Counted from the stretch's first letter, positions 2,212 through 59,168 are shown. The stretch: DNA of 64,000 bases from Verrucomicrobiales bacterium (GCA_040905585.1 JBBDRG010000011.1:95249-159248), one strand, 5' to 3'. The notes: generated from the letters alone by a model not told the origin. Translations and numbers: made by a program.

Positions 2212-5200
2212 ATGCCGAGAGACACGTCGATTGAGAAGATACTGCTGATCGGGTCGGGACCCATCGTTATCGGGCAGGGTTGCGAGTTCGATTATTCCGG
2301 AGTTCAGGCCTGCAAGGCGCTCAAGGAAGAGGGCTACACGGTGGTACTGGTGAACTCGAATCCGGCCACGATCATGACCGATCCGGAGTTCGCGGATCGC
2401 ACCTACATCGAGCCGATCACCGCGGAGATCGTGGAGAAGATCATCGAGCAGGAGAAGCCCGACGCCCTGCTGCCGACCCTCGGGGGACAAACCGCTCTGA
2501 ACACCGCGATGGAGCTGGTGCGGTCCGGATTTCTCGAGCGATCCGGCGTGAAGCTGATCGGCGCCAACGCCGAAGCCATCGAGAAAGGAGAGGACCGGCA
2601 GCTTTTCAAAGACGCCATGATCAAGATCGGGCTCGACATGCCCCAGTCCGGCGTGGTCCACACCATGGACCAGGCCCGCGAGATCGCGGCCGAGATCGGT
2701 TCGTTTCCGCTCATCGTTCGGCCGGCCTACACCCTGGGCGGTTCCGGCGGAGGGATCGCCTACAACCGCGAAGAACTCGACCTCATCGTGAAGCGGGGGC
2801 TCGATCTCTCTCCGGTCAACGAGGTCCAGATCGACGAATCGCTGCTCGGCTGGAAAGAATTCGAAATGGAAGTGATGCGCGACCACGCCGACAACTGCGT
2901 CGTGATCTGTTCGATCGAGAATTTCGATCCCATGGGGGTTCACACCGGCGATTCCATCACCGTCGCGCCCGCCCAGACGCTGACCGATCGGGAATATCAA
3001 CTGATGCGCGACGCCTCCTTCGCGGTGATCCGGGAGATCGGCGTGGAGACCGGCGGTTCCAACATCCAGTTCTCGGTGAACCCGGAAGACGGACGTCTGG
3101 TCGTCATCGAGATGAACCCGAGGGTGTCCCGCTCCTCGGCGCTCGCCTCGAAAGCCACCGGCTTTCCCATCGCGAAGATCGCCGCCAAGCTGGCGGTCGG
3201 CTACACGCTGGACGAGATACCGAACGACATCACCCGCGAAACCCCGGCCAGCTTCGAGCCGACCATCGATTACTGCGTCGTGAAGCTGCCCCGCTTCACC
3301 TTCGAAAAATTCGCCGACGCGGATCCGACCCTGACCACGCAGATGAAGAGCGTGGGCGAGGCCATGGCCATCGGCCGGACCTTCAAGGAAGCGCTTCAAA
3401 AAGCGCTCCGCTCGTTGGAAACGGGCCGTTTCGGTCTCGGCAGCGACGGCAAGGACGGCGATCCCGACCTCAGCTACATCCGGGAAAGGCTCGCCACTCC
3501 CAACGCCGAGCGCATCTTCTTCGTTCGGCTCGGATTCGAAGCCGGACTCGACTTGGCGGAGATTCACGGCCTCACCGGGATCGACCCCTGGTTTCTCAAG
3601 AACATCGAGGATCTGCTCGCGGCGGAGGGGGAACTGGGGACGGATCTGGAGACGATGGATTTTCGCCGGGCCAAGCGCCTCGGGTATTCCGACCCGCAAC
3701 TGGCCTTTCTCACCGGCCGTTCCGACGCCGAGGTTCGCGCGCTGCGGAAGGAGCGGGGCGTGGTGCCGACCTACCGACTGGTGGACACCTGCGCCGCCGA
3801 GTTCGAGGCGTACACGCCCTACTTCTATTCGACCTACGGAATCGAGAACGAGGCCCGGAAGAGCGACAAGCGCGGGGTGATGATCCTCGGGGGCGGCCCC
3901 AACCGGATCGGCCAGGGAATCGAGTTCGATTACTGCTGCGTCCACGCTTCCTTTGCCCTCAAGGAGTTGGGATTCGAAACCATCATGGTCAACTCGAACC
4001 CGGAGACCGTCTCGACGGACTACGACACCAGCGACAAGCTCTACTTCGAGCCGCTCACTCTGGAAGACGTGCTCAACATCTACGAGCAGGAGGACTGCTG
4101 GGCGGTCATCGTGCAGTTCGGCGGTCAGACGCCTCTCAACCTCGCGGCCGGACTCGAGAAAAACGGCTGCCGGGTGATAGGCACCTCGCCCAAGAACATC
4201 GAATTGGCGGAAGACCGGAAATTCTTCTCCGCGCTGCTCGACAAGCTCGGCTTGCAGCAGGCGCCGGCCGGCACGGCCGTGTCGGCCGAGGAAGCCGTCG
4301 AGATCGCGGGCAAGATCGGCTACCCGGTGCTGGTCCGGCCCTCGTTCGTTCTCGGCGGACGGGCCATGATGATCGTCTACAACGACAAGGACCTGGAGCA
4401 CTACATGCAGACCGCGGTCGACGCGAGCCCGGAGCGACCCGTGCTGATCGACCGCTTCCTCGAGGACGCCACCGAGATAGACGTCGATTGCATTTCGGAC
4501 GGGGAGACGACGGTGGTGGGGGCCATCATGGAACACATCGAGCAGGCTGGCATCCACAGTGGCGACAGCGCCTGCGTGATTCCCTCTTTCTCGCTCGGCG
4601 AAGCGATGTGCGAAAGAATTTCCGACGCCGCCAAGGATCTCGCCAAGGAGCTGGAGGTGCGGGGCTTGATGAACATCCAGTTCGCCGTGAAGGGCGAGGA
4701 ACTCTACGTCATCGAAGTCAATCCCCGCGCGTCGAGGACGGTGCCCTTCGTTTCGAAGGCGATCGGAGTTCCGTTGGCCAAGCTCGCTTCGAAGGTGATG
4801 GCGGGCGAGAAGCTGGTCGATCTCGGTTTCACCGAACCGATTACGCCCAAGCATTTCTCGGTGAAGGAAGCCGTGTTTCCCTTCGCCAAGTTCCCCGGCA
4901 TCGATATCAGTCTCGGTCCCGAGATGAAGTCGACCGGCGAGGTGATGGGAATCGACGCCGATTTTGGAATGGCCTACGCCAAGGCCCAGATGGCGGCTTC
5001 CGCGAAGCTTCCCCTCGAAGGAAACCTCTTCATCAGCGTAAAGGATTCCCACAAGGATCAGGCCGTCGAACTGGCGCGGAAATTCAGCGACCTGGGATTC
5101 ACGATTTTTTCCACCTCGGGGACGGCGACCCGTCTCTCCGAGGCGGGTGTTCCCGTTCACCGGCTTCACAAGTTGGCCGAGGGACGCCCCAACGTGCTGG

Positions 5201-7788: not shown

Positions 7789-10700
7789 ATGACGAAATTT
7801 TCTGCCCATTTCGTCGCGATCGCCGCCCTGTCGTGGGCGGGGGCGACCCGTGACGTTTCCGCCGAGGTCGATTTCGGGACCGAAATTCGGCCGATCCTGA
7901 CGGAAAAGTGCCTGCTTTGCCACGGACCCGACGACGAGAAAGGAGGCCTGCGTCTCACCGGCATCGATTTCGCGGAGAAGGAACTCGACTCGGGCGCGAT
8001 CGGCATCCTGCCCGGCAAGCCCGACCAGAGCGCGTTGATCGAGCGGATCCACGCCTCCGATCCGGACGACGTCATGCCGCCGCCGGACAAGGCGGAGCCG
8101 CTCACCGACGGCGAAAAGGCGAAGCTGCGCCAGTGGATCGCGGAGGGGGCGACTTGGCCGAAGCACTGGGCCTTCGCGGAACTGTCCGGATTCGACGCCG
8201 AAGGTCGGCCGCCGAAGGGGGAACACCCGATCGATTTTTTCGTCCGGCGCGGGCTGGAGGAAAAGGGAATCGAACCTTCGCCCAAGGCGGACGCCGCGAC
8301 TTTGGTGCGCCGGCTTTTCTACGATCTCGTCGGACTGCCGCCGTCACCGGAACAGGCGGACCGTTATCTGGAATTGCTGCGGAAGGACCGCGAGGCCGGG
8401 CTCGCGCAACTGATCGACGACCTCCTCGCCAGCGAGCATTTCGGCGAGCGCTGGGGGCGCCACTGGCTCGACAAGGCGCGCTACGCCGACAGCGACGGCT
8501 ACGAGAAGGACAACAATCGTCCCGACGCATGGCGCTACCGCGACTGGGTCATCGACGCGATCAACGCCGACATGCCCTTCGACCGCTTCACCATCGAGCA
8601 GTTCGCCGGGGACCTGTTGGAGGAACCGTCGCCGGATCAGCTGCTGGCCACGGCGTTCAATCGGCAGACCTTGACCAACACCGAGGGCGGCACCGACAAG
8701 GAGCAATGGCGCGTCGCCGCGGTGATGGATCGCGTCGAGACGATGGGCGCCGTGTGGATGGGCCTGACCTTGACCTGCGCGCGCTGCCATACCCACAAGT
8801 ACGACGAGGTGACCCACGACGAGTACTATCAGCTGTTCGCCTACTTCAACAACGGCGACGAGGTGGAGACCAAGGTGCCGAAATCGGAGGAAGCCTGGGC
8901 CGCCTACGAACGGGCGGCGGCCCGGCATCGGGAGAAGCTGGAAGACGTCCGAACGCGCGCGGCGGCGGCCCGGGGCGAGCTCGCCGAGCGGATGCCGGAG
9001 TGGGAAGCCCGCGCCCAAAGGTGGCTGGCGGAAGCCGAAGCGGTGGAAGACCCGGTTTTCACGCCGCTTCCGGTGGCAGAGGTCGCCGGACCGAAAGGCG
9101 TGAAGTTCAATCGGGCGAAGGACGGCACGATCACCGCCGGCGGGCAGAATCCGCCGAAGGCCACCTACACCCTGAGCGGCCGGCTCGAGCCCGGTACCGT
9201 GACGGGCGTCCGGATCGAAGCGCTGCCCGATCCGAAGCTCGGCGGCGGCAAGGGGCCGGGACGGTCCAAGGCGGGCAATTTCGTGCTCAACCAGATGAAC
9301 CTGTCGGTCGCGGGAACCGGTCGGCTCGTTTTCGCCGGCGCGGAGGCCGACTATTCCCAAGGAAACTGGGCGGTGCAGAACGCGATCGACGGCGACGCTC
9401 GGGAAGGAAAGGACGGCACGGGCTGGGCGATCTCGCCGGAGATGGGCCAGGCGCACGAGGCCGTCTTCGGGCTCGCGCGGCCGGTCGCGCTGGAAGAGGC
9501 GGCGGATTTCACGCTGGATCTGGTGCAGAATTACGGGAGCGAGCACACCTTGGGCAAGTTCCGGGTTACTTTGCTGACGACGCCGACGCGGCTCGTCCTG
9601 AGCGAAGAAGCGAGAGAGGCGCTGAAGAAGCCGGCGTCGGAGCGCGACACCGCGGAACAGGCCCTGCTGGCGGCGCACTTCGAGCGGATCGATCCGAAGA
9701 CCGCACCGCTGCTGGCGCAGGTACACGCCCTGGAGTCGAAGCCTCCCGCGAAGCCGGAGATGGACGTGCGCATTCTCCGCGAGCGGCGGGAAGACCGGCG
9801 CGAAACGCACGTGTTCAAGCGAGGAGAATTCAAGCAGCCGCTCGGTCCGGTGGAGCCGGGCACGCCGGCGGTGCTGGCGCCCATCGAGCACCGGGGCGGG
9901 GAAGGCGACCGGCTCGACTTGGCGCGCTGGCTGGTGAGCGGCGAGAATCCGCTGCCGCCGAGGGTGGTCGCCAACGGGATCTGGGCGAACCTTTTCGGCG
10001 AAGGGCTCGTGGCCACCCCGGACGATTTCGGCGTCCGCGGCGATCGTCCCTCGCACCCGGAACTGCTGGACTGGCTCGCGGCGGAGTTCGTCGCCCAGGG
10101 ATGGTCCCGCAAGGAACTGATCCGGCGCATCGCCACGTCGAAGACCTACCGCCGGAGCTCCGATCACCGGCCCGATCTGGCCGACGTCGATCCGAACAAT
10201 CGCCTTCTCGCCCGGCAGAACCGTTTCCGCGTGGAGGCGGAAATCGTGCGCGACATTTCCCTCGCCGCGGCCGGGTTGCTGTCGGACAAGATCGGCGGCC
10301 CCAGCGTGTTCCCGCCCCTGCCGGCGGGGGTGGCCGACGTGAACTACAACTCGGCCTTCAAGTGGGTCGTCAGCGAGGACGAGGATCGGTACCGGCGGGG
10401 AATGTACACCTATTTCAAGCGCACCGCGCCGCATCCCAACTTGACGACCTTCGACTGCCCCGATTCGAACACCACGAACGTGCAGCGCTCGCGCTCGAAC
10501 ACTCCGCTGGCCGCTCTCATCACGCTGAACAACGAGACCTTCGCGGAAGCCTCCCGATCCATGGCGGAGCGGGTCCTCGCCGATCTACCGGAAGGCGACG
10601 ACCGGGCCCGGATCGATCGCGCCTTCCGCCTCTGTCTGTCGCGCGGCCCGGAAGCGGCCGAAAGCGACCGTCTCGCCAGCCTGCTGGAGTCCGCGCGGGG

Positions 10701-12396: not shown

Positions 12397-14061
12397 ATGA
12401 ACACCGTGACCCGTCTCCTGCTGTTCCCGACCGTTCTGGCCGCCTTTGTCGTCGCGTCCATTGTCAGGGCCGACTCTCCTGTTCACGAAGCGGACGTCGT
12501 GGTCTACGGCGATACGCCCGCCGCCATCGTCGCGGCCATCCAAGTGAAGGGGATGGGGAAATCCGTGATTCTGGTGGCGCCGAAGAAACAACTCGGCGCC
12601 ATGGCCAGCGGCGGGCTGGGCAAGACGGACAAGGGAAAGGAAGGCACGATCGGCGGAATGTCGCGGGAGTTTTTCGAGCGGGTCGGAAAGCACTACGGAA
12701 AGGACATCGGCTGGGATTTCGAGCCGAAGGTCGCCACCGCCGTGTACGAGGAAATGCTGGCGGACGCCGGGCTGGACGACACCGCGGTGCGTCGCGGCCG
12801 GAGGCTCGATTTGACCGACGGCGTCACCAAGAACGGGAGCCGAATCCAGGAGATCCGCTGCGAATCCGGCGAGCGCTTTCGAGCCCGGGTCTTTCTCGAC
12901 TGCACCTACGAAGGCGATCTCATGGCCTTGGCCGGCGTCGCCTATCACGTGGGCCGGGAGCCGCGGAGTCAATACGGCGAAAAACTCGCCGGGGTGCTCG
13001 AGCCCGGCTCGGAGGACTACCGCCAGCCCAAGCAGTTCTTCGAGGAAGGGGTGGATCCCCACATCGAGCCGGGCGATCCTTCCAGCGGCCTGCTTCCCGG
13101 CATACAGGGCGAAGGACTGGCGGAACCCGGCACGGGCGACGCCAAGGTGCAGGCATACAATTTCCGGCTCTGCCTGACCACCGATCCCGGCAATCGCATT
13201 CCCTTCACCAAGCCGAACAACTACGATCCGGCACGATACGAGTTGCTGGCGCGCCACATCCAGGCGCGGGTGAAGGGAGGCCTGCCCGTGACCTTGTCGG
13301 AGCGCGTCGCGGAAGGGTCGACCCTGCTCAAGGTCGACCGGATGCCGAACAACAAAACCGACATCAACGACGGGAGTCCGGCCTCCCTCGACTACATCGG
13401 CGCCAACTGGGACTACCCGGAAGGCAACTACGCGGTTCGCGAACGGATCTGGCGGGAACACGTCGACTATACCAAAGGTCTGATCTGGTTCATCGGAAAC
13501 GATCCCCGGGTCCCGGCGGACGTGCGGAGCGAGATGATGGCCTACGGCTGGCCAAGGGACGAGTACGTCGATACCGACCACTTTTCCCACCAACTCTACG
13601 TCCGCGAAGCCCGCCGCATGGTCGGTCGGTACGTCATGCGCCAGCAGGACTGCGAGGAAACCCGGACCAAGGACGACAGCATCGGGATGGGTTCCTACGG
13701 GGTGGACAGTCACCACATCCAGCGCGTCGTCGTCGACGGTCGGATCGTGAACGAAGGCAACTTTCTCGCTCGGCCCACGGCCTACGAGATTCCCTACGCC
13801 AGCCTGGTCCCGAAGTCCGACGAATGCACCAACCTGCTGGTGCCGGTGTGTTTGTCGGCGTCGCACGTCGCCTTCGGCAGCCTCCGGATGGAACCGGTCT
13901 GGATGATCCTGGGGCAGACCGCCGCGACTGCCGCGGCGCAGGCCATCGACGCCGACGAGACCGTCCAGAAAATCGACTACGGGACGTTGCGCGAGCGCCT
14001 CCTGGCCGACGGTCAACGGCTCAAACTGAGCGAGTGGGATCCCGCTTCGGCGGGGAGGTGA
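12397..14061 (+). CDS. Secreted FAD-dependent oxidoreductase (FAD_oxidored family)
   Basis: Signal peptide, DVVVYGDTPAAIVAA dinucleotide-binding start, FLDCTYEGDL, YVREARRM and SLRMEPVWM. Confidence 0.9.
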   Translation: MNTVTRLLLFPTVLAAFVVASIVRADSPVHEADVVVYGDTPAAIVAAIQVKGMGKSVILVAPKKQLGAMASGGLGKTDKGKEGTIGGMSREFFERVGKHYGKDIGWDFEPKVATAVYEEMLADAGLDDTAVRRGRRLDLTDGVTKNGSRIQEIRCESGERFRARVFLDCTYEGDLMALAGVAYHVGREPRSQYGEKLAGVLEPGSEDYRQPKQFFEEGVDPHIEPGDPSSGLLPGIQGEGLAEPGTGDAKVQAYNFRLCLTTDPGNRIPFTKPNNYDPARYELLARHIQARVKGGLPVTLSERVAEGSTLLKVDRMPNNKTDINDGSPASLDYIGANWDYPEGNYAVRERIWREHVDYTKGLIWFIGNDPRVPADVRSEMMAYGWPRDEYVDTDHFSHQLYVREARRMVGRYVMRQQDCEETRTKDDSIGMGSYGVDSHHIQRVVVDGRIVNEGNFLARPTAYEIPYASLVPKSDECTNLLVPVCLSASHVAFGSLRMEPVWMILGQTAATAAAQAIDADETVQKIDYGTLRERLLADGQRLKLSEWDPASAGR

Positions 14062-14133
14062 AGCGAGTCGTCGTGCGGCGGCGGACCATGAAGTCGCCCT
14101 ATCGAGCGCTGGCATCCGATCAGCACGCCGCCG

Positions 14134-14325
14134 TCAGGCGCCCGGATACCGCCGGGTGGCGCGGGGTCCTTTGCCGGTGCGGCGATACTCGGGGTGGACT
14201 TCCGGGATCGTCTGGTAGAGCTCGCAGGTGCGGTAGTAGTTCCAGATCCTCTGCACGGGATCCGGTTCCCCGGACTCGGTCTGCAGGTGCGGATCGGTCA
14301 GGAGCGCCACGGTTTGCTGATTCGT
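14134..14325 (-). pseudogene. Orphan coding fragment of unknown family
   Basis: About 60 codons with strongly GC3-biased usage (…ALLTDPHLQTESGEPDPVQRIWNYYRTCELYQTIPEVHPEY…) and no convincing start or RBS. Confidence 0.3.
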
Positions 14326-16960: not shown

Positions 16961-17026
16961 AGGAAATCGCTTTTTCAATCCTCCCGCTCCGACACCGCAC
17001 GTCGCTCCGGGACGGAGGGTGCAGCC
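16961..17026. repeat. Dispersed repeat, copy A
   Basis: AGGAAATCGCTTTTTCAATCC is identical to 54272-54292, followed by about 45 nt of partial similarity. Confidence 0.7.
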
Positions 17027-17086: not shown

Positions 17087-17953
17087 TCACCCATCTTCTC
17101 CGAACACCGCCAATTGCGGCAGGTGATCGCTGAGGGCGAATGAGCTTTCGTCGCCTGTATCCAGGCGGAACGCTCCCTCGAAAAGCGGCCTCGATTCGAC
17201 GACTTGCTTGGCGATCGGTCCGGTAGCCATGACGTAATCGATGCGGCGCTGCGGATCGTCGGCCTTGATCGTCGAGCCGTCTCCTCGGCCGACCTCGGCA
17301 AAGGTGTCGATCCACCCGGCGTCCGTCCAGAGTTTGTATTCCTCGGTGTCCGGGGCGTGGTTCAAGTCACCGATCAGCAACATCGAGCGGCCGGCATCGA
17401 GATCCTCTTTCATCGAGGCCAGCATCGCCCTGATCTCCTTCAGCCGGACGGTGGGATCCGGGCCGGGGAACAGGTGCGCGGAATGGACGATCAACGGCTC
17501 GCCGTCGGGCAATTCGACCGTGCCCATTCCCCAGTGCCGAGTGAAAAGGTCCTCCGGTTGTTCGTATCCGAGTGGGACGTTGGCCGAATCGGCGATCTCG
17601 AACCGGCTGAGCAACGTTCCCGGCCAGTTGCCCCCGCTGGGCAGGCAGACGTGATTCATCCCCAGATAGCCGGCCACTTCTTTGGCGATCTCTTCGCCGG
17701 GCGATTCGGAAAAGCTGACGATGTCGGGATCGTACATCGCCAGTTCCATGGCCAGCCGCCTGGGCATCTGGCCTTTCTCGACCGCTTGCTTCGCCATCGG
17801 GCGATCGGCCGGCCATCCCTTGCAGCGGTACACGTTGTAGGCAATCACCCGCAGCGATGGCAGGCGCTTGTCGGCCGCGAATACCGGCACCGTGGTCGCC
17901 GAAAGGCCGGCAGCGCCGAGAGCGGCGCAAAATCGACGCCGAGGAAGCGTCAT
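17087..17953 (-). CDS. Endonuclease/exonuclease/phosphatase (EEP) family protein, Tat-exported
   Basis: PRRRFCAALG Tat motif; IAYNVY, SFSES, LIGDLNH, RIDYV and SDHLP catalytic motifs. Confidence 0.88.
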   Translation of the reverse strand: MTLPRRRFCAALGAAGLSATTVPVFAADKRLPSLRVIAYNVYRCKGWPADRPMAKQAVEKGQMPRRLAMELAMYDPDIVSFSESPGEEIAKEVAGYLGMNHVCLPSGGNWPGTLLSRFEIADSANVPLGYEQPEDLFTRHWGMGTVELPDGEPLIVHSAHLFPGPDPTVRLKEIRAMLASMKEDLDAGRSMLLIGDLNHAPDTEEYKLWTDAGWIDTFAEVGRGDGSTIKADDPQRRIDYVMATGPIAKQVVESRPLFEGAFRLDTGDESSFALSDHLPQLAVFGEDG

Positions 17954-18275
17954 GGCGGGACTTTCCTTTGGATTCATGGAAGGGGTGCAGGGAAGCAAGG
18001 GTGAAATAGCAGTTCGACTGCCGGGATGTCATCGCCGATTGCTCCTTTCGTCAAGCTTTTGCCGGAAATGGATGCCATTTTCGCCGACTCGAGGACACGA
18101 AAATCGCCCTGAGCGGGTTCCCTCCCGCAGAGGCGCGGAGGCAGGAGAAAGATGGATTCCTAACGACCATGAAGCGCTCGCGGCAGACGCCGCGAATTGG
18201 GTTGCCCGGCGGGAGGGAAGGGGAGAGATTCCGATGGACTGGCCGGCAGACGATCCGTTTCCCGGCAATAAACCG

Positions 18276-20810
18276 ATGAGAGCTGTAATCCTTGCAACCA
18301 CGCTCGCCCTGAGCGCGGTCATTGACAGCGGCGGGGCAGCCGAGCCGGTGGAGGTTGCCCTCGCCGAGGGCGGGCGAACCCGTCACGCGGTGGTGATCGG
18401 TCCCGGGGCGACCGAGCGCACCAAGGAGGCGGCGCGGGACTTGGCCGGGTATCTGGAACGCATCAGCGGCGCGACCTTCGAGGTGCGCGTCGGCGATGGC
18501 ACCACGGGCCTGGCGGTGGGCGAGGTCGGCGATTTCCCCGCCTTGGATCTCGACGCGGACTTCGAGCCCGAGGACCCGTTCCGCCGCGACGATTACCTGC
18601 TGCGCACGCACGAGGACGGCGCCTACCTGATCGGCGCCGGTGAACTGGCGATCCATCTGGCGGTCTGGGATTTTCTGCATCGCTTGGGCTACCGGCTCTA
18701 TTTTCTCACCGACACGTGGGAAATCGTGCCGGAGCGCACCGATCTGGCGGTGGCGCTCGATACGTTCGAGCAGCCCGATTACGTCACCCGCCAGGCTCCG
18801 CGCGGCGCGCCGTGGAGCGATCTCGGTTTGTGGAATCGCTGGCGGCTGCGCAACCGTGTCGACGCCTCGTTTTCCCTCCAGACGGGCCACGTCTACGGCC
18901 GAATCATCCAGGCCAACCGGGAAGCGTTCGACGAGAACCCCGACTACTACGCTTTGGTCGACGGGGAACGCAAGGACGGCGGCGCCAATACGAAATTCTG
19001 CATCAGCAACCAAGGCTTGCGGCAACTGGTGATCGACTGGGCCGTGCGCGAGACGGAGGACAATCCCGAGCGGGACAGCCTCTCGATGGATCCGTCAGAC
19101 GGCGGCAACTGGTGCGAATGCGAAGACTGCGCTGCGATGGGAAGCGTCAGCGATTTGGCGATCACGCTGGCGAACGAAGTGGCCGAGGCCATCAACGATC
19201 TCGGCCTGGGCTCCAGGTACGTCGGCATCTACGGTTACAACCAGCACAGTCCCCCACCGAACATCGAGGTGCATCCGAACGTGGTCGTCAGCGTGGCGAC
19301 CAGCTTTATCCGCGGCGGCTACACGGTCGAGGAACTGGTCGAGGGCTGGCGGGCACGGGGCGCGACGCTGGGCATCCGCGACTACCACGGCGTATTCACC
19401 TGGAACCACGACGGCCCTCGCGAAGCCCGCGGCGGGGATCTGGAATACCTCCGTCGCACCATTCCCTACTTTCACGGGCAGGGCGCGCGCTTCATGAACT
19501 CGGAGAATGGCGACAGTTGGGGCGCCGACGGCCTCGGCTTCTGGATGACGCCGCGGATGCTGTGGGACCTCGACGAGGCCGACCGCGTCGACGAACTGGT
19601 CGAGGACTTTCTGGGCAAAGCCTTCGGTTCGGCGAGGAAGCCCATGGGCGAGTTCTACCACTTGCTCAATCTCGATCACGACTCGGTGCGTTCGAGCGAG
19701 GATGTCGTCGCCCGCCTCTATCGCCATCTCGACGAAGCCCGGCAGCTCGCGGACGATCCCGCCGTTCGCGAACGGCTCGCCGACCTGGTCCTTTACACTC
19801 GCTATCTGGAACTCTACTACGCCTACCGGCAGGCCGACGGCGCCGCGCGGCAGGCGGCCTTCGAACAGGTCTGGCGTCACGCCTACCGCATGCGCGATCG
19901 GATGATGCTCTCCACCGTGGCCATCTGTCACCGGGGGCGCGCCTATCGCGACCCTTCGGTCGAGGTGCCCGCGGAAGCGCATTGGAATGTGCCCGAAGAG
20001 GAGAACCCGTGGAAGAGCGGCGAGCCGTTCGGGGAGGGGGAAATCGCGGAGGTGCTCGAAGCGGGAATCGAGGCCAATCAACCGACGGTGCTGGATTTCG
20101 AGCAGACCGCCTACAGCGAGGACTTGGTGCCGGCCACTCGCTTGAACCTGCCGGAGGTGGAGCCGGGCAGTCGGCCCGATCAGTTCCGAGGGCGGCAATC
20201 CTTCCACACGTGGCTTCCTGCAGATCGGGGGCGGATCGAGTTGCAGGTCACCGGCGGCCTGATCGCCCATTACCGCGACCGGGGCAACGTGGAGATCGCC
20301 CTCCACGCCGATCAGGAAGCGACGCTCGAACCGGTGGCGCGGGACGACAGCGTGCCGCCGGACGGCGAGGAGCGCACGGTGGTGCTGAGCACGCCCTACG
20401 ACGGGCTGCATAGCCTGGAGTGGAGCGACGGCAACGACATGACGCGGGTCGTCTGGCCGGACGGGCTGCCGTTCACGGTGCGTTCGACGCTGGAGGACCA
20501 GATGAACTTTGTAGGCCGCTGGAGCCTGTACTTCTACGTGCCGCGCGGCACGCGGGTCGTCGGCGGCTACAGCACCGGCACCCAGGGGAAACTGCTCGAC
20601 GGCAGGGGCAACACCGTTTTCTCGTTCGGCGATCTAGGCCAAGCGGACTACTTCAGCGTGCCCGTGCCCGAAGGCCAGGACGGAACGCTCTGGAAATTCG
20701 AGAATTGCAGCGGCCGGCGGATGCTAATGTCCGTCCCGCCCTACTTGGCCCCCAGTGCCGAAGACCTGCTGCTGCCGCGCGAAGTCGTGGAGGCCGACGC
20801 GGGACCATGA
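18276..20810 (+). CDS. DUF4838 domain secreted protein (glycoside-hydrolase-like)
   Basis: Signal peptide at ATG 18276; AARDLAGYLERISGA N-domain, HPDY/NPDYYAL...KFCISN, SMDPSDGGNWCECEDC and YGYNQHSPPP. Confidence 0.8.
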   Translation: MRAVILATTLALSAVIDSGGAAEPVEVALAEGGRTRHAVVIGPGATERTKEAARDLAGYLERISGATFEVRVGDGTTGLAVGEVGDFPALDLDADFEPEDPFRRDDYLLRTHEDGAYLIGAGELAIHLAVWDFLHRLGYRLYFLTDTWEIVPERTDLAVALDTFEQPDYVTRQAPRGAPWSDLGLWNRWRLRNRVDASFSLQTGHVYGRIIQANREAFDENPDYYALVDGERKDGGANTKFCISNQGLRQLVIDWAVRETEDNPERDSLSMDPSDGGNWCECEDCAAMGSVSDLAITLANEVAEAINDLGLGSRYVGIYGYNQHSPPPNIEVHPNVVVSVATSFIRGGYTVEELVEGWRARGATLGIRDYHGVFTWNHDGPREARGGDLEYLRRTIPYFHGQGARFMNSENGDSWGADGLGFWMTPRMLWDLDEADRVDELVEDFLGKAFGSARKPMGEFYHLLNLDHDSVRSSEDVVARLYRHLDEARQLADDPAVRERLADLVLYTRYLELYYAYRQADGAARQAAFEQVWRHAYRMRDRMMLSTVAICHRGRAYRDPSVEVPAEAHWNVPEEENPWKSGEPFGEGEIAEVLEAGIEANQPTVLDFEQTAYSEDLVPATRLNLPEVEPGSRPDQFRGRQSFHTWLPADRGRIELQVTGGLIAHYRDRGNVEIALHADQEATLEPVARDDSVPPDGEERTVVLSTPYDGLHSLEWSDGNDMTRVVWPDGLPFTVRSTLEDQMNFVGRWSLYFYVPRGTRVVGGYSTGTQGKLLDGRGNTVFSFGDLGQADYFSVPVPEGQDGTLWKFENCSGRRMLMSVPPYLAPSAEDLLLPREVVEADAGP

Positions 20811-53424: not shown

Positions 53425-53961
53425 ATGTCAGCGCCCGAACGTCGAAAGTACAGAACGTTGAGGAATATCGGGGCGTCCGCGCCCGGAGCGAATCCCGCCG
53501 GAGTCGGCGACGGGAAAAGTGCCGGGCCGGAGGAGGAGGGCGACGGAGCGCCGGCGCGCGTTCTCGTGGCCCATCCGGTGGCGTCGACGTCCCGGCTCGT
53601 CCGGGAGACGCTCGAGAGCTTTACCGGGTCGCGGGTCGAGACGTCTTCCAATCCCCTGCGGGCTTTCGAACTGGCTTTGCAGAAGCCCTACCGGCTTTTC
53701 ATTTTCGCCATGCAGATGGGCGAAATCACCGGGCCGATGCTCTACGAATTGATTTCCAAAGCCTACACCGCCGGACGCGGTCCGAAACAACTGGCGCCGG
53801 GCGTGATTTTCATTCGCGAAAAGGACGATGCCAAACTGCCCGAGGAACTGTCCCGGGACGTCCGGGTGAAGGACGTCCTCACCAAACCGCTCCGGATCGA
53901 GCGACTCCTCCAGCCGGTCGCCGGCGTTCTCGAGGTGCGCGATCCGACGACGGGGACGTAG
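53425..53961 (+). CDS. Stand-alone pseudo-receiver (atypical response regulator) domain protein
   Basis: RVLVAHP...LFIFAMQM...GPML...VLTKPL follows the REC fold pattern, but the acidic pair and phosphoacceptor Asp are missing. Confidence 0.7.
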   Translation: MSAPERRKYRTLRNIGASAPGANPAGVGDGKSAGPEEEGDGAPARVLVAHPVASTSRLVRETLESFTGSRVETSSNPLRAFELALQKPYRLFIFAMQMGEITGPMLYELISKAYTAGRGPKQLAPGVIFIREKDDAKLPEELSRDVRVKDVLTKPLRIERLLQPVAGVLEVRDPTTGT

Positions 53962-54271
53962 CGTTTTCCGTCGCCGCGACCGCGACCGAGCTTCGAGAAC
54001 ACGACCTCGGCTCCGGCGGCCTTGGAGCATCTGCCGAGACCGGCACGCTCTTGGAAAATGCGGCGTATGATTCGATATTCTTTTCCTGGCATCGTCCACG
54101 GAGCAGAAGATCGCCGGGCTGGACATGCTGGAGCAGGTCGAAGGCCGTCGACATGTCGTTCTCCCTCCAGTCGATGGAGTTCGGCGTCGACGGTTTCGCC
54201 CGAGCGAAAATCGAAGGCCCAGCGGAGTCGGAGCGCGGCGGTGTCTCCGAACTGATTCGGGAAAAATTGCT

Positions 54272-54339
54272 AGGAAATCGCTTTTTCAATCCCAACGCTC
54301 CCTCACCGCGCATCGCCCCGGGTTGGAGAGGGTTCAGCC
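54272..54339. repeat. Dispersed repeat, copy B
   Basis: 21-nt identity to 16961-16981 plus downstream similarity; lies where the Kelch ORF loses its homology. Confidence 0.7.
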
Positions 54340-54577
54340 GCCAGCTTCGGTCGGACGGACCGAGTTCGATCGCGGTGTCGCGCCATCTCTTGAGCCCCTC
54401 CTGCCAGCAGGTGCCGCCCGCCACCAGCAGAGTCGCCCCCTTTTTCGTCACCGCGTGCCCGGCCAAGCCCTTCGGCATGGCCGGCAACTCCTGCCAAACC
54501 GACGCCGCAGGCGCATGCCCGGCCGCAGCCATAACGGCGATTGCAGCCAAGTTGCGGACTATCCGGCGGGCATTCAT
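54340..54577 (-). pseudogene. Truncated Kelch-repeat (NanM-like) secreted protein
   Basis: Signal peptide, then WQELPAMPKGLAGHA...LLVAGG...W (one Kelch blade); runs into the dispersed repeat after about 80 codons. Confidence 0.6.
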
Positions 54578-54600
54578 GATGGTGCAACGCGCCATCGAGC

Positions 54601-55788
54601 TTATTTAGGCAACGAGCGCAGAAACGGAGCCATGACGTTTTCGTAGGTTTCGTCGATGAAGTCCGCCACTCCCAGGTAACGCCGGAAGCCGCTGCTGCAC
54701 TCCTCCTCCAGATAGCGGCGCACGTCCGTCACAAGGTCGGGACGCGGCGGGGCGGCGGCAAATTCCTCCGCCGTGACGCAGTAGCCGGAAGTTCCCCCTT
54801 CCTTTGGGGGCCGCTCCGGCTCGCGGCCCTGCCGCACAAACCCGGAAAAACCGCCGACGCCCAGAGTGTAGTTGAACCCCACCCCGCGTGCATCCTCCGC
54901 AATGAGCACCGAGGGACGGCGCTGGCGGAAGAAACCCAGGTGGGCATGGCATTCGTAGCCCACGTGCAGGTCGCACTCCCGATAGAAATCCAGTTTGCCG
55001 ACATCCCCGGCCAGCTCCAGCACCTCGAAGCCCAGCTCCACCGCGCGGCGGCGAATGAACGCATTCTTCTCCGCGACGTCGGGACGCATCGACGCGTCGT
55101 TGGTCGGTCGTTTGTCGGCAAAGGGCGACACGTTCGCGTCCGTCAGGTGCATGGCACAGTAGCGCTGAGCCCGGGGAAACAGCTCCGCCAGCATAACCAG
55201 CACCGCGTCCGCCTGATCCCGGTAGTAGGCGCTCAGCGGCGGGCTGAACATCACCCGCTCGATCGAAGCGGGACGATGCAGGGGCTGGCCCAGAAAGTCC
55301 GGATCATACCAGGCCGGATCACCGGTCATCAGCGTGTTGCCGATGCCGTGTCGCTGCAGCACTTCGGACACAAAATACTCCCGGCATGAGATCGCCTCCA
55401 CCCCCGCAGCGACACGTTGCAGAAACGCGGTGGTTTCGGGCGAGTAGCGCACGTGGCGCCGGTTTTCAGCATCGCCGGGATAGACGTTCCAATTGGCCCC
55501 GACCGGGATGAGCGGCACCTTGATGCGGTCGAGATCCTCAACCAGCCGATAGCATCCGGGATACATCGGCGCGTCGCGGATGGGAAAGGCCGGCATCAGG
55601 ATGCCTGCAGTCGCGTTGATTTCGTCGAGTCGCTCGTCCAGCGGGTCCTCACGAAAGATCGTGAGATAGTCCACCTCGCCGCATTCGCGGTCGATCAGTC
55701 GCTTGGTGGCAACTTCAATGAGTTGGTCGCCGACATTGGACGAACTGCGGTTTTCCGGGAACGTGGTAAGAACCGTGTATTTTGTCAT
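54601..55788 (-). CDS. Polysaccharide pyruvyl transferase family protein
   Basis: NVGDQLI, ISCREYF, TGDPAW and HVGYECHAHL (equivalent of the R.H..I motif). Confidence 0.75.
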   Translation of the reverse strand: MTKYTVLTTFPENRSSSNVGDQLIEVATKRLIDRECGEVDYLTIFREDPLDERLDEINATAGILMPAFPIRDAPMYPGCYRLVEDLDRIKVPLIPVGANWNVYPGDAENRRHVRYSPETTAFLQRVAAGVEAISCREYFVSEVLQRHGIGNTLMTGDPAWYDPDFLGQPLHRPASIERVMFSPPLSAYYRDQADAVLVMLAELFPRAQRYCAMHLTDANVSPFADKRPTNDASMRPDVAEKNAFIRRRAVELGFEVLELAGDVGKLDFYRECDLHVGYECHAHLGFFRQRRPSVLIAEDARGVGFNYTLGVGGFSGFVRQGREPERPPKEGGTSGYCVTAEEFAAAPPRPDLVTDVRRYLEEECSSGFRRYLGVADFIDETYENVMAPFLRSLPK

Positions 55789-55818
55789 GATTGAAGTGAT
55801 GTCAGGCCCCGCCGGGAA

Positions 55819-57081
55819 TCAGAGATTCAGGAAAGTGCCCGCGATATAGCGGGTGATGGATTCCGGGTCATCGGGGGTTTCCTGATTGAAATAATAGGCC
55901 ATCAGCACGCGGCCGTCCGGCAGCTCGATCGAAACAGGGTAACCCAGATCCGAAGTGCCACCATCGTCTCGCACGACGATCTCGTTGGCGATGTCCCAAG
56001 TCTCGCCTCCGTCGTGGCTGAGGGTCGCCCGCACCCCGAACGGAGGGCGACGGTACCCGTAGGCGCAGAGCAGCCGCCCGTCGCTGAGTTCCAGCACGTG
56101 TGCGGGGAAGCCCCACATCGGGGTCTGCACCGGCTCCGACCAGGTGCGGCCGTTATCATCCGAAATGCATTGGAATACGTGGCCGTAGTGACTGTAGAGC
56201 GTACCCACATCACCACCTTCCTGCCGCACGCGCTCGTCCGCTTCCGGGCCTTCGCCACGTGTGCGCAACATGCTGATGAGGCGGCCGCTGCGCAACCGCA
56301 CCAAACTGGGTTCCAGAAAGTGCACCGCAAGCTCCGAACCTTCCGCAACCGACGTTGGTTCTCGCCAGGTTACGCCGCCATCGGTTGAACGCAGACAGAA
56401 CACCAGGGCCCAGTCGCGCGGGCGGCCCACCGTGCGGCTCAGGTCGTTGACCTGCATGAGCAGCGTGCCGTCGTCGAGTTCCACGACCTGGGCCCGCCCG
56501 CCAAACGGTGGCAACCCCGCCACATCGACCGGACGACGATCCGTCCAAGTCCGCCCTTGATCCGTCGAATGTCGCGTCCACATCCCTTCGAATATGCCGA
56601 TGAACGGCTTCCGCGGGCCCACCACCCGGCGGCCGGTGTGGATCTTGTCCAACGCCACTCCGGTCGGCACCGGCGCGATGCCCCAGCTGTAGATGCCCGC
56701 CAGCAAGCTGCCGTCGGACAGGACGGTCAGGGTGGTGTCCTGGGACGAGGAAAAACGTATCGTCTCGTCGTCGACCACCCGCTTTTCACCGAAGGTGCGG
56801 CCGCCGTCGCGCGAGCGCAAAAGCACCCCGCGGGACGCGGGATCAACGTGCCCCCGCAGTTTCCGGGACCGCGCATGGGCCTCTCGCAGACCCATCAGAA
56901 TGTCGCCGTCGGGCAACACCGCGAGCGACGGTCCGAGGTAATACATCGTATCATCGCGGTGCAGCACCACGTGCTCCATCTCAACCGTGGTATCGGCCAA
57001 CACCGGCACCGCCGGGCTGATCAGGAGGCCCGACAAAGCAGGGCAGAAAAGGGTAAGGATTCGGGGTATTCGGTTCATCAT
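55819..57081 (-). CDS. Secreted BNR/Asp-box sialidase-like glycosidase
   Basis: Five Asp boxes (SRDGGRTF, STDQGRTW, STDGGVTW, SDDNGRTW, SHDGGETW), plus EPSL and a C-terminal AYY. Confidence 0.85.
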   Translation of the reverse strand: MMNRIPRILTLFCPALSGLLISPAVPVLADTTVEMEHVVLHRDDTMYYLGPSLAVLPDGDILMGLREAHARSRKLRGHVDPASRGVLLRSRDGGRTFGEKRVVDDETIRFSSSQDTTLTVLSDGSLLAGIYSWGIAPVPTGVALDKIHTGRRVVGPRKPFIGIFEGMWTRHSTDQGRTWTDRRPVDVAGLPPFGGRAQVVELDDGTLLMQVNDLSRTVGRPRDWALVFCLRSTDGGVTWREPTSVAEGSELAVHFLEPSLVRLRSGRLISMLRTRGEGPEADERVRQEGGDVGTLYSHYGHVFQCISDDNGRTWSEPVQTPMWGFPAHVLELSDGRLLCAYGYRRPPFGVRATLSHDGGETWDIANEIVVRDDGGTSDLGYPVSIELPDGRVLMAYYFNQETPDDPESITRYIAGTFLNL

Positions 57082-57101
57082 GATTTTGTTGGGTTCGTGA
57101 T

Positions 57102-58634
57102 TCAGGAGGGATCTCGCTCGCGCACGACGGTCCGCCAGGTAAGTCCCTTCAATTCCTCCGCCGACTTGGTTTTATGACCCGCCAGAACGGCCAGCGCCGC
57201 GGCCGTCGCGAGCCAGCCGGGCAGCCCCAGCCAAATGAAGCCGATGCGTTCATCCGCCGGGGTGCCGAAGTAGAGGAACCAAGGAATCGTCAGATTGATA
57301 ACGCTTCCGGCGATGATGCCGACCACCGCACCGCGGGCGGTGCACCGCGGGAAGAATATGCCGGCGAGCATGACCACGAGCAGCACCCCCCAGAGGTTGG
57401 CCCAGACCAGATTGATCTCGAACACGGACGTCTCCACCTGCTTGCCCGCCGCGATGACGGCCAGCGCCAGACCGATCATCACCCCACCCCAGACCAAGGT
57501 CAGTCGTTTGCCCAGTCGCAGGAGCTCGGTGCCGTCACGTCGCTTCAAAATGTCGATCGTGAACACCGTGGAAATTGAATTCAGCGTGGAATCGAATGAC
57601 GACATCAACGCCGCCACCAAAGCCGCCGCGATCAGCCCGGGAATCGGCGACGGCAATGAGGTTGAGATGAACCAGCCCAGGATCCCGTCGGCCTCCACGC
57701 CGGGCGGCGGCGCGCCCAGCTTGTTGTAATAGAAGTAGAGCAGCAGACCGCAGAAATAGAAGACCAGCATGATCGGCAAGGTGCCGAGAGTCTTGAGCAT
57801 GATAGCCTTCTTCGCCGTATCGTAAGAGGAACTCGCGAGAATGCGCTGCACGACGAGCTGATCGGTGCCGTAGTTGGCCAACGGGGTGATGAAGGAGAAC
57901 ATCAAACACAGCCAGAACGTGTAGCGCAGGTGCAGATCGAAGGAGAAAAACTCTGCGGTCGTCACCGCGCCGTAGGTCCGGTCGTTCTGCCGGGCGAAAT
58001 CCCACACCGCCCCGAAATCGAAATCCGCCGCCGCCGACAACTTGAAGACAATAAAGCCCAGGCCGAACAGGATTACCATCGTCTGGACAAAGTCCGTGAT
58101 GATGATCGCCCGCATGCCCCCGATGTAGCTGTAGGCAATCGTGACCGTGCCGATGACCAATACCGTAACTTCCGGCGGCCAGCCAACCAGCGTCTCAAAC
58201 GCCTTCGCCGAGGCGTAAAAGATCATCGCTCCCGTCAGGCACCGCGCGATGATGAAGATGACGCTGCCGAGTGTGCGGGTGGATCCGCCGAAGCGACGTC
58301 CCAGATACTCATAAGCCGTGAATGTGCCCGCCTGATAAAAGAAGCGCAGAAAGATCCACACCGCCAAGGGCGTGAAGAGGAAGTAACCGACTGAATTGAG
58401 GCTGAGCAACATGCCGTTGCGATAGGCCTCGGCCGGCACCGCCACGAAGCTGATGGTGCTGAAAAGCGTGGCATACATGCTGACTCCGATCAGCAGCCAC
58501 CCTGTCCTGCGACCGGCCAGGAAATAGTCTTCGCCGGTTTTCTGACCGCGACGAATTCGTAGCGCCGTGCCGAACGTGAAGAGCACGTAGACACCAACGA
58601 CCAGCCAGTCCAGTATCGTCAGATTGGTGGTCAT
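57102..58634 (-). CDS. Sodium:solute symporter (SSS) family transporter
   Basis: EDYFLAGR, STISFVAVPAEAY, YEYLGRRFG, GGMRAIIITD, TDQLVVQR and AALMSSFDS. Confidence 0.92.
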   Translation of the reverse strand: MTTNLTILDWLVVGVYVLFTFGTALRIRRGQKTGEDYFLAGRRTGWLLIGVSMYATLFSTISFVAVPAEAYRNGMLLSLNSVGYFLFTPLAVWIFLRFFYQAGTFTAYEYLGRRFGGSTRTLGSVIFIIARCLTGAMIFYASAKAFETLVGWPPEVTVLVIGTVTIAYSYIGGMRAIIITDFVQTMVILFGLGFIVFKLSAAADFDFGAVWDFARQNDRTYGAVTTAEFFSFDLHLRYTFWLCLMFSFITPLANYGTDQLVVQRILASSSYDTAKKAIMLKTLGTLPIMLVFYFCGLLLYFYYNKLGAPPPGVEADGILGWFISTSLPSPIPGLIAAALVAALMSSFDSTLNSISTVFTIDILKRRDGTELLRLGKRLTLVWGGVMIGLALAVIAAGKQVETSVFEINLVWANLWGVLLVVMLAGIFFPRCTARGAVVGIIAGSVINLTIPWFLYFGTPADERIGFIWLGLPGWLATAAALAVLAGHKTKSAEELKGLTWRTVVRERDPS

Positions 58635-58641
58635 CCTGCGT

Positions 58642-58731
58642 TCACGTAGTTTGAAGTTTGTCCTTGGTCACGATGGCGTATTCGTGAGTCTTGGCGTATT
58701 CCCAGATGTCGGTATCGCTGTCGTCGGCCAT
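58642..58731 (-). pseudogene. Fragment of a DUF5615 PIN-like protein
   Basis: MADDSDTDIWEYAKTHEYAIVTKD matches the A.D..IW..A......IVTKD.DF core of that family; both ends are missing. Confidence 0.5.
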
Positions 58732-58937
58732 TGCCGCCTTCGGCACCCTCTGCGGTCACGCTTCGCGGCTTTCGTGCGCTGTCGCGCCGCGGCAGTGCCA
58801 TTCGGTTTCACTCCCGCCGCGCCATCAATCCTCGGGTGGCGGTTCGATCTCGTCACTCCAGCCCCACCGCAGCGGCATGTCGAGCGGCTCCATCGTGTCG
58901 ATGCCGAAGGGCGGACGTAATTGAAGACCTGGTCCCT

Positions 58938-59168
58938 AAATACTCGGAACGGCCCGACCATCGTCCCGGCCGGAAGAATCAGGTTCCGGCCCGTGGCAGG
59001 ACAACCGAGGGATTGACCGGATTTCGACTCGATCCCGCTCAGGAATGATTCGTATCGTGCGAGCAGCTCCGCGTCGTGACCGCATTTGCCAAGAAGATAC
59101 TTTTCGCGATCGTCGTTCGCAGTGTGACCCAGCGCCTCGATCAAAATATCGCTGAGGACGGTTTTCAT
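58938..59168 (-). pseudogene. N-terminal remnant of a PVC-type Ser/Thr protein kinase
   Basis: ILIEAL...REKYLLGKCGHDAELLARYESFL...GTMVGPFRV is the typical pre-kinase segment; there is no GxGGMG and no kinase body after it. Confidence 0.5.

Follow-up and report, generated by a model that had tools for sequence, protein, structure and literature searches.

What is a gene of the pyruvyl transferase family doing in an operon that otherwise appears equipped for the uptake of an acidic sugar? The question is raised by a locus in the genome of a Verrucomicrobiales bacterium (GCA_040905585.1), analysed here within a 64,000-nucleotide stretch of contig JBBDRG010000011.1 (95249-159248), the whole of which is termed the window and is numbered from its first letter. 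The first-pass annotation of this DNA, made from the sequence alone, had described a sodium:solute symporter (SSS or SSF), an Asp-box sialidase-like enzyme, a pyruvyl-transferase-family protein, referred to here as Q, and a truncated Kelch protein in tandem, and had suggested that the pyruvyl-transferase fold may act catabolically. All four genes are present on the minus strand, separated by gaps of 20, 30 and approximately 23 bp, and are listed below with the features that border them, L007 being a metagenome contig with a related locus.

57102-58634, minus strand: SSS symporter, first gene of the operon, 510 amino acids (PF00474, E 9.6e-43; TIGR00813, 231 bits)
55819-57081, minus strand: BNR/Asp-box protein, 420 amino acids, with an N-terminal signal peptide (PF13088, 70.5 bits; PF02012)
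54601-55788, minus strand: Q, of the PS_pyruv_trans family, 395 amino acids (PF04230, 40.2 bits)
54338-54577, minus strand: stump of a NanM-type Kelch gene, 80 codons (tblastn with the L007 Kelch)
54266-54337, strand not given: one copy of a dispersed host repeat of about 70 nucleotides, directly at the Kelch break point
58635-59075, strand not given: upstream boundary of the acquired block and presumed promoter region, with nucleotide collinearity to L007 stopping at 58651

The answer developed here is that the cassette would harvest an anionic sugar and that Q may hydrolyse the ketal of a 2-oxo acid, most likely as a depyruvylase, a reading to which we give an even chance of being correct. 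The clade to which Q belongs is a catabolic clade of the PF04230 family, and Q is not an ordinary biosynthetic transferase of that family. The match of Q to PF04230 exceeds the cut-off of 25.3 bits and covers residues 18-170 and profile positions 1-164 of 280. Q carries the motif HVGYE279CH281AH283, and its clade the motif HVG[YF]E-x-H-x-H, with glutamate at position 279 in 27/27 aligned clade members versus arginine in 64/64 others; the two groups are referred to as Glu-type (E-type) and Arg-type (R-type). The Glu-type sequences form one clade with a Shimodaira-Hasegawa-like approximate likelihood-ratio (SH-aLRT) support of 100, in a quick IQ-TREE analysis where the midpoint root serves for drawing only, and the R-type relatives match PF04230 profile positions 1-276.

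Homologues 53-91% identical to Q are found in Verrucomicrobiota, Planctomycetota, Kiritimatiellia, Lentisphaerae, Bacteroidota and Gammaproteobacteria (Woeseia), and further in Paenibacillus, Limnochordia, Chloroflexia, Spirochaetia and Halovenus. Their neighbours include transporters (SSF, major facilitator superfamily or ATP-binding cassette (ABC) binding-protein types), regulators of the AraC, LacI, GntR and IclR families, sulfatases, TonB receptors and BNR_2 proteins, along with genes of sugar-acid oxidation (GFO_IDH_MocA, MR_MLE, HpcH or DHDPS aldolases, FAH and AKR). For instance, Q adjoins transporters and regulators in Woeseia, Planctomicrobium, Limnochordia, Spirochaetia and Paenibacillus, and in Membranihabitans the homologue lies inside a SusC/SusD polysaccharide utilisation locus. 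To count contexts, all open reading frames (ORFs) of 83 non-duplicate loci were clustered, with the antisense shadow ORFs of the greedy ORF caller (cluster 7) left out, and the loci were split by the residue at position 279. The resulting counts, which are descriptive and not a statistical test because the loci are related to one another, are as follows: NeuB or PseF/G occurs in 0 of 32 Glu-type loci, with sialidase-fold propellers in 15 and sulfatases in 8, and a NeuB-like synthase and/or a PseF-PseG fusion occurs in 38 of 50 Arg-type loci, where the usual arrangement is PseF/G, NeuB, Q, Wzx. The 83rd locus (L001, from Woeseia) reads HVGFECHAH and was missed by the motif search, and is Glu-type as well. 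The 11 Glu-type loci that were annotated with Pfam are all catabolic in context. The first-pass annotation had named, as the outcome that would speak against it, homologues found only in biosynthetic loci together with an arrangement that is not conserved; the close homologues lie instead in catabolic contexts, and the arrangement is conserved.

The R-type relatives are 27-39% identical to Q (L039-L088, for example L075:9935-11122, L044:9998-11155 and L047:9998-11125), and lie beside PseF-PseG and NeuB/PseI-like genes in many bacterial phyla, in haloarchaea, and in Nitrosopumilus and Bathyarchaeota. They may pyruvylate glycans of the pseudaminic acid (Pse) type, or may represent an unrecognised nonulosonic acid (NulO) transferase; a role as a nucleotide-sugar hydrolase resembling PseG/LegG was considered and rejected, as these loci already encode PseG fused to PseF. 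A paper on legionaminic acid (Leg) in Halorubrum makes no mention of the Q homologue.

Two other groups of proteins recur around the E-type genes. A family of 430-450 amino acids without a Pfam match, the second recurrent neighbour of Q, is present at 6 loci (L003:8619-9938, L089:5341-6642 and L023:168-1517 among them), is set by the ESM Atlas with 'probable sialidase' propellers (TM 0.87), and has a Tat-like (twin-arginine translocation) signal in its Bacteroidota copy. In loci of the Woeseia type, three or four paralogous proteins of 514-530 amino acids, again without a Pfam family, surround the Q-SSF pair (L001:14159-17390 and 3604-5169; L110:2057-3601, 8174-9748, 12752-14296 and 17675-19237), accompanied by FAH, AKR and a TonB receptor.

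Structure prediction for Q, one of the checks proposed in the first-pass annotation, yielded an AlphaFold model (pLDDT 93.5) with the two-domain glycosyltransferase-B (GT-B) fold, resembling Pvg1p (5ax7) with a Z of 14.9 and a root-mean-square deviation of 4.4 over 260 residues, a match that is tied with those to many GT-B enzymes; the ESM Atlas returned the Pfam name only. Because neither Q itself nor the profiles A1 and A2 retrieved a relative from the PDB by sequence, not even Pvg1p, residues were mapped by means of hhalign to E. coli WcaK, a ketal-pyruvyltransferase of colanic acid. Here, the C-E-L-T-V-G-T-R-L-H of WcaK falls on C-D-L-H-V-G-Y-[R/E]279-x-H281, with both clades in one register, the downstream lysine falls on R301, and R-E falls on R136-E137, which predicts a place for E279 in the active site. 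A mapping of the canonical R-L-H motif on D273-L-H275 was dropped, the WcaK alignments putting the motif on [R/E]279-x-H281. The R-L-H motif corresponds to R337-L338-H339 of S. pombe Pvg1p, where modelling and docking put R337 and H339 in contact with phosphoenolpyruvate (PEP), and in CsaB mutagenesis supports a need for R148, H308 and K328 in PEP binding or catalysis (PMC10435577). Q has an incomplete set of PEP-binding residues, in that R136, H281 and R301 are kept and the arginine of R-x-H is Glu279, and its clade has invariant residues of its own, D157 and D217, as well as two insertions.

The window Q is without a signal peptide and is cytoplasmic. Tat signals, consisting of an N-terminal extension with a twin-arginine motif (e.g. 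RRDFIK) followed by a hydrophobic stretch, are present in 20/119 Glu-type proteins, and none was seen among the R-type proteins that have N-terminal extensions. PEP is not expected outside the cytoplasm. The export of some members through Tat and the glutamate replacing the arginine of R-x-H are the reasons for which Q is probably not a PEP-dependent transferase. Since Q descends from enzymes that make pyruvate ketals and has lost the arginine modelled to contact PEP, ketal hydrolysis is the simplest reaction that can be proposed for it. The candidate reaction and substrate, suggested by sequence comparison, would be a pyruvate ketal converted to pyruvate and a free sugar diol, with water and Glu279 standing in for the phosphate and arginine of the transferase reaction. 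A catabolic role for the pyruvyl-transferase fold is supported by the genomic contexts, by a conserved gene order, by Tat export and by the Arg-to-Glu switch.

The gene upstream of Q encodes a secreted six-bladed sialidase-fold (GH33-like) propeller of the Dfer_1899 family. Five S-x-D-x-G-x-T-W/F Asp-boxes are found in its sequence, the family profile matches 5hx0 (Dfer_1899, a protein of uncharacterised function) with an E-value of 1.7e-71 and sialidases next at about 1e-17, and Foldseek with the predicted model (pLDDT 87) returns 5hx0 (TM 0.71/0.81) along with further top matches that are all GH33 sialidases, including the pseudaminidase of P. aeruginosa. In the profile alignment, H-V-D80-P lies on the acid/base aspartate of sialidases, E257 on the catalytic glutamate, and R273, 16 residues further on, on the second arginine; R344 and Y381 are invariant in the family and are given the roles of third arginine and tyrosine by blade position only, the C-terminal blades being unaligned to sialidases. 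The arginine of the Arg-Ile-Pro (RIP) motif is absent, as the Y-R-I-P of sialidases aligns to Y-x-x-P in the family (Y-L-G-P here) and no member has an arginine at this place. Judging from the residues that are kept, the protein is likely to be active as a hydrolase on an acidic sugar. Because the RIP arginine is absent and the nearest solved relative is the uncharacterised Dfer_1899, it is described here as sialidase-fold and not as a sialidase, and the first-pass label of 'Asp-box sialidase-like enzyme' holds for the Asp-boxes and the fold and fails at the RIP arginine. The BNR homologues of Gram-positive carriers are without a signal peptide; both enzymes are thus cytoplasmic there and would act after ABC import.

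It could be argued that the BNR protein is the real depyruvylase, with Q in some other role, such as binding the sugar once released, isomerising it, or working on another substituent, since a pyruvate ketal mimics a sialoside at C2. The carboxylate-bearing ketal carbon would be chemically analogous to that position, the residues matching the sialidase aspartate, glutamate and two arginines are invariant, as is a tyrosine placed by blade only, and BNR-type propellers accompany Q in 15/32 loci. However, Woeseia and Planctomicrobium have Q and a transporter without a BNR gene, Q descended from enzymes that bind the pyruvate-ketal product, and the Arg-to-Glu switch in Q would be left needing explanation, making this assignment of roles unlikely.

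A more conventional possibility is that the locus is an ordinary operon for the uptake of N-acetylneuraminic acid (Neu5Ac) in which a biosynthetic, PEP-dependent pyruvyl transferase is present by chance. The combination of SSS, BNR protein and Kelch gene does resemble nan loci, and the Pfam name of Q is that of the biosynthetic family. Yet a canonical sialidase locus is already present on a different contig of the genome (C52:77561-93691), with two full-length BNR_2 matches of 271-275 bits against 60 for the window protein, and with a DHDPS (NanA-like) gene. In addition, the RIP arginine is missing from the BNR protein, the gene order is conserved across phyla, and the clade of Q has no biosynthetic locus, is partly Tat-exported and lacks the arginine of R-x-H; an ordinary Neu5Ac operon is, on these grounds, highly improbable. 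The C52 locus also has further BNR_2 fragments, BNR_2 matches number 18 genome-wide, and NanE (PF04131) was not found in the genome, which is 92.8% complete.

Among proteins of solved structure, the symporter is closest to the sialic-acid transporter SiaT (5nv9, E 1.4e-40); SMCT1, NIS and SMVT come next, and the sugar transporters SGLT/vSGLT score far lower. This ranking places it in the carboxylate/anion branch of the SSS family, and it probably imports a carboxylate-bearing sugar. The residues of P. mirabilis SiaT that bind sialic acid, which we take to be T58, S60, T63, Q82 and R135, were followed through a phmmer alignment, where S60 is kept, T63 is replaced by serine, T58 by leucine, Q82 by serine and R135 by threonine, with an arginine three residues earlier.

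The relationship to SiaT bears on what is perhaps the most serious alternative, namely that the sugar is a NulO other than Neu5Ac (Pse-, Leg- or ketodeoxynonulosonic acid (Kdn)-like, and possibly sulfated) and that Q acts on the NulO, either as a GT-B ketoside hydrolase or by removing a substituent, possibly a pyruvate ketal of the glycerol side chain, before aldol cleavage. SiaT is, after all, the closest solved transporter, the BNR protein folds like a sialidase and retains, by alignment, counterparts of the sialidase aspartate, glutamate and second arginine, and in related loci the Kelch protein scores above the NANM Pfam threshold and DUF386, GntR/FCD, DHDPS, HpcH and GFO_IDH_MocA genes lie nearby. 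The R-type relatives adjoin PseF-PseG and NeuB/PseI-like genes in the 38 of 50 loci counted above, from bacteria and archaea alike, and no classical glycoside hydrolase lies beside Q in the 11 Pfam-annotated loci, as would fit the harvest of a terminal cap. The R-type relatives, however, retain the full R-x-H...K signature of PEP-dependent ketal pyruvyltransferases, so that their link to NulO loci may only mean that the glycans made there are also pyruvylated. Moreover, the BNR family is without the first arginine of the sialidase triad, most of the SiaT residues in our list are not kept (those at T58, Q82 and R135, replaced by leucine, serine and threonine), and we know of no NulO-processing activity for the fold of Q. 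Action on a NulO is possible under this balance of evidence, if rather doubtful.

Whatever the sugar, the arrangement of the genes is not due to chance, because L007 7139-11408 aligns with window 54377-58651 at 79% nucleotide identity, collinear and without rearrangement, and because the same gene order is found in L005-L008. Conservation of the four-gene set had also been proposed as a check, and the order SSF-BNR_2-PS_pyruv_trans-Kelch is kept in L005/L006 and L007/L008. The full order in these loci is GntR/FCD regulator, TonB-dependent receptor, sulfatase, SSF, BNR_2, Q, Kelch (331-338 amino acids) and sulfatase, with MR_MLE, 2-hydroxyacid dehydrogenase, DUF386, HpcH aldolase and GFO_IDH_MocA genes near the cassette. 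The window retains the SSF, BNR and Q genes and the Kelch stump, and the upstream sulfatase, TonB receptor and GntR gene of L007 are missing. Q is single-copy in its own genome, and a search of 24 genomes of the same genus and 16 of the same order did not find it. These comparisons show that the locus was acquired horizontally and is a trimmed version of a larger conserved cassette rich in sulfatase genes. Base composition does not set the acquired island apart, and the insertion site could not be defined from synteny around the neighbouring receiver-domain gene, five same-genus genomes being too divergent.

The Kelch gene is truncated, as the first-pass annotation had noted. What survives corresponds to residues 1-80 of the 331-residue NANM-type Kelch of L007, at 55% identity (tblastn), and comprises the signal peptide and the first Kelch blade only. 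The L007 orthologue passes PF24996 NANM with 58 bits against a cut-off of 45; a Pfam scan of the 238-residue ORF that carries the stump gave no family match, six blades of a PF24996 propeller are not present in the window copy, and a full-length Kelch of the NanM type was not found elsewhere in the 92.8%-complete genome. The window Kelch is a pseudogene, the stump of a NanM-type mutarotase gene. As Kelch homology ends at 54338, next to the repeat copy at 54266-54337, the mutarotase gene was lost through rearrangement at a host repeat. The repeat has 27 matches in the genome at E <= 0.01, about 18 of which span most of the element at 78-93% identity, the rest being partial, and the window has one more copy at 16961-17017; the repeat may represent a REP/MITE-like (repetitive extragenic palindrome or miniature inverted-repeat transposable element), rearrangement-mediating element.

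A truncated Kelch gene, the missing receptor, sulfatases and regulator, and the failure to find the cassette in the 40 related genomes would all be consistent with a decaying, non-functional remnant of an acquired island. The remaining three genes argue otherwise, being full length and 84-91% identical to their orthologues (89% for the SSS gene and its L007 orthologue), with ratios of nonsynonymous to synonymous substitution (dN/dS) relative to L007 of 0.058 for the SSS gene, 0.100 for the BNR gene and 0.041 for Q, as opposed to 0.36 for the Kelch stump. The SSS, BNR and Q genes are under purifying selection and are maintained, and decay of the locus as a whole is very unlikely.

Taken together with Q as a ketal hydrolase, the cassette suggests the following pathway. 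The full cassette would take an anionic, carboxylate-bearing and often sulfated sugar decoration from foreign glycans. The secreted BNR enzyme would free the acidic sugar in the periplasm, a NanM-like mutarotase, whose gene is now a stump, would formerly have equilibrated its anomers, and the SiaT-like symporter, as its subfamily suggests, would bring the sugar in with Na+. Cytoplasmic Q would then cleave the ketal at C2 of the 2-oxo acid.

Several points weigh against this pathway. With the BNR enzyme in the periplasm and Q in the cytoplasm, the substrate of Q must be something that the symporter is able to transport. The hhalign matches to WcaK on which the residue mapping rests are weak (probabilities of 57% and 10%; E-values of 1e-4 and 3e-3), albeit in the same register. 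The accessory genes, namely those for the sialidase fold, the NanM-type Kelch, DUF386 and the SiaT-like symporter, suggest a nonulosonic acid at least as much as a pyruvylated hexose, and the R-type sister clades adjoin genes for the synthesis of Pse-type NulOs. Because the sulfatases, receptor and regulator are missing, the present use of the window copy may differ from that of the full cassette. A published observation, on the other side, fits the pathway. The verrucomicrobium Luteolibacter sp. VK1 has an annotated pyruvyltransferase, VK1_2210, with predicted Tat secretion, which was detected solely when a pyruvylated exopolysaccharide was the growth substrate, and the oligosaccharides of this polymer became depyruvylated; the authors leave its role open (PMC13750104, 2026). 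VK1_2210 can be likened to the E-type clade by description only, and differs from the cytoplasmic Q of the window in its predicted secretion. A possible reading that combines the two kinds of substrate is that a pyruvate ketal is removed from a NulO-containing glycan or from the NulO itself.

The surroundings of the operon are not sugar-related, with proB/proA, uvrA and a receiver-domain gene on one flank and a DUF1592/DUF1552 pair, divergent from the upstream region of the operon, on the other. Promoter and terminator scans of the locus gave nothing convincing, with a single weak sigma-70-like site at 59203-59175. Between operon and DUF1592 gene lies an ORF of 166 amino acids (58668-59168, minus strand), which runs into the start of the DUF1592 gene, has no family match and is probably not a gene. 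The stand-alone receiver-domain protein (53425-53961, plus strand; PF00072 at 25.8 bits, below the cut-off of 30.2) is kept in 21/24 same-genus genomes, and the ORF that reads through from the Kelch stump extends over the 3' end of its gene.

Pyruvate ketals occur on xanthan, succinoglycan, colanic acid, many capsules, cyanobacterial and algal galactans and yeast N-glycans, where they block glycosidases. In the literature searched, no depyruvylating enzyme is known, nor is there a description of a catabolic, partly exported PF04230 clade with an Arg-to-Glu switch and a Dfer_1899-type partner; a known enzyme that releases pyruvylated galactose (PvGal) was considered as a BNR-like precedent and set aside, being a GH1 enzyme. 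The gene families at the locus are already known, and what would be new is the E-type clade, its diagnostic switch and the partnership with Dfer_1899-type proteins. We propose, with slightly less than even confidence, that the E-type clade represents the missing family for glycan depyruvylation, derived from PEP-dependent transferases by the Arg-to-Glu change, and forms part of a widespread toolkit for anionic caps that includes a Dfer_1899-type hydrolase, sulfatases and a SiaT-like importer in Planctomycetes-Verrucomicrobia-Chlamydiae (PVC) bacteria, Bacteroidota, Bacillota, Chloroflexota, Spirochaetota and haloarchaea. As the candidate family is now defined in sequence and recognisable by a diagnostic motif, and as it has carriers that can be cultured (Woeseia oceani, Paenibacillus oceani and Membranihabitans marinus among them) and a simple assay in pyruvate release, glycan depyruvylation becomes directly testable. 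If the proposal is correct, the carbohydrate-active enzymes would gain a new class, genes labelled 'pyruvyl transferase' in polysaccharide utilisation loci could be better annotated, the recycling of pyruvylated and sulfated polymers by marine and soil bacteria would be accounted for, and a tool for tailoring gums of the xanthan type would become available. The family would also show clearly how a transferase can become a hydrolase through one charge reversal.

Among known systems, the ketal-pyruvyltransferases of PF04230 (Pvg1p 5AX7, P. alvei CsaB and E. coli WcaK) are the most similar to Q, which has their Pfam match, GT-B fold and N-x-G-D motif, and keeps R136, H281 and R301 at the positions of CsaB R148, H308 and K328. 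They differ from Q in that the position of Pvg1p R337 is glutamate throughout the Q clade, that invariant D157 and D217 and the two insertions are extra features of this clade, and that its members lie in catabolic loci and are in some cases Tat-exported. The nan loci (GH33 sialidase, NanM, SiaT, NanR and NanA) share with the window a secreted sialidase-fold hydrolase and an SSS symporter closest to SiaT, and with the cassette relatives a NANM-family Kelch, a GntR/FCD regulator and DUF386. In contrast to the nan loci, the BNR protein here is without the RIP arginine, genes for NanA, NanK and NanE are not at the locus, and sulfatases and the pyruvyl-transferase-fold enzyme are core members of the cassette in its relatives. 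The closest parallels in function may be the sialate O-acetylesterase NanS, the carbohydrate sulfatases and the etherase MurQ; although these are unrelated to Q in fold and chemistry, and none cleaves a ketal, each strips a non-sugar substituent so that catabolism can proceed.

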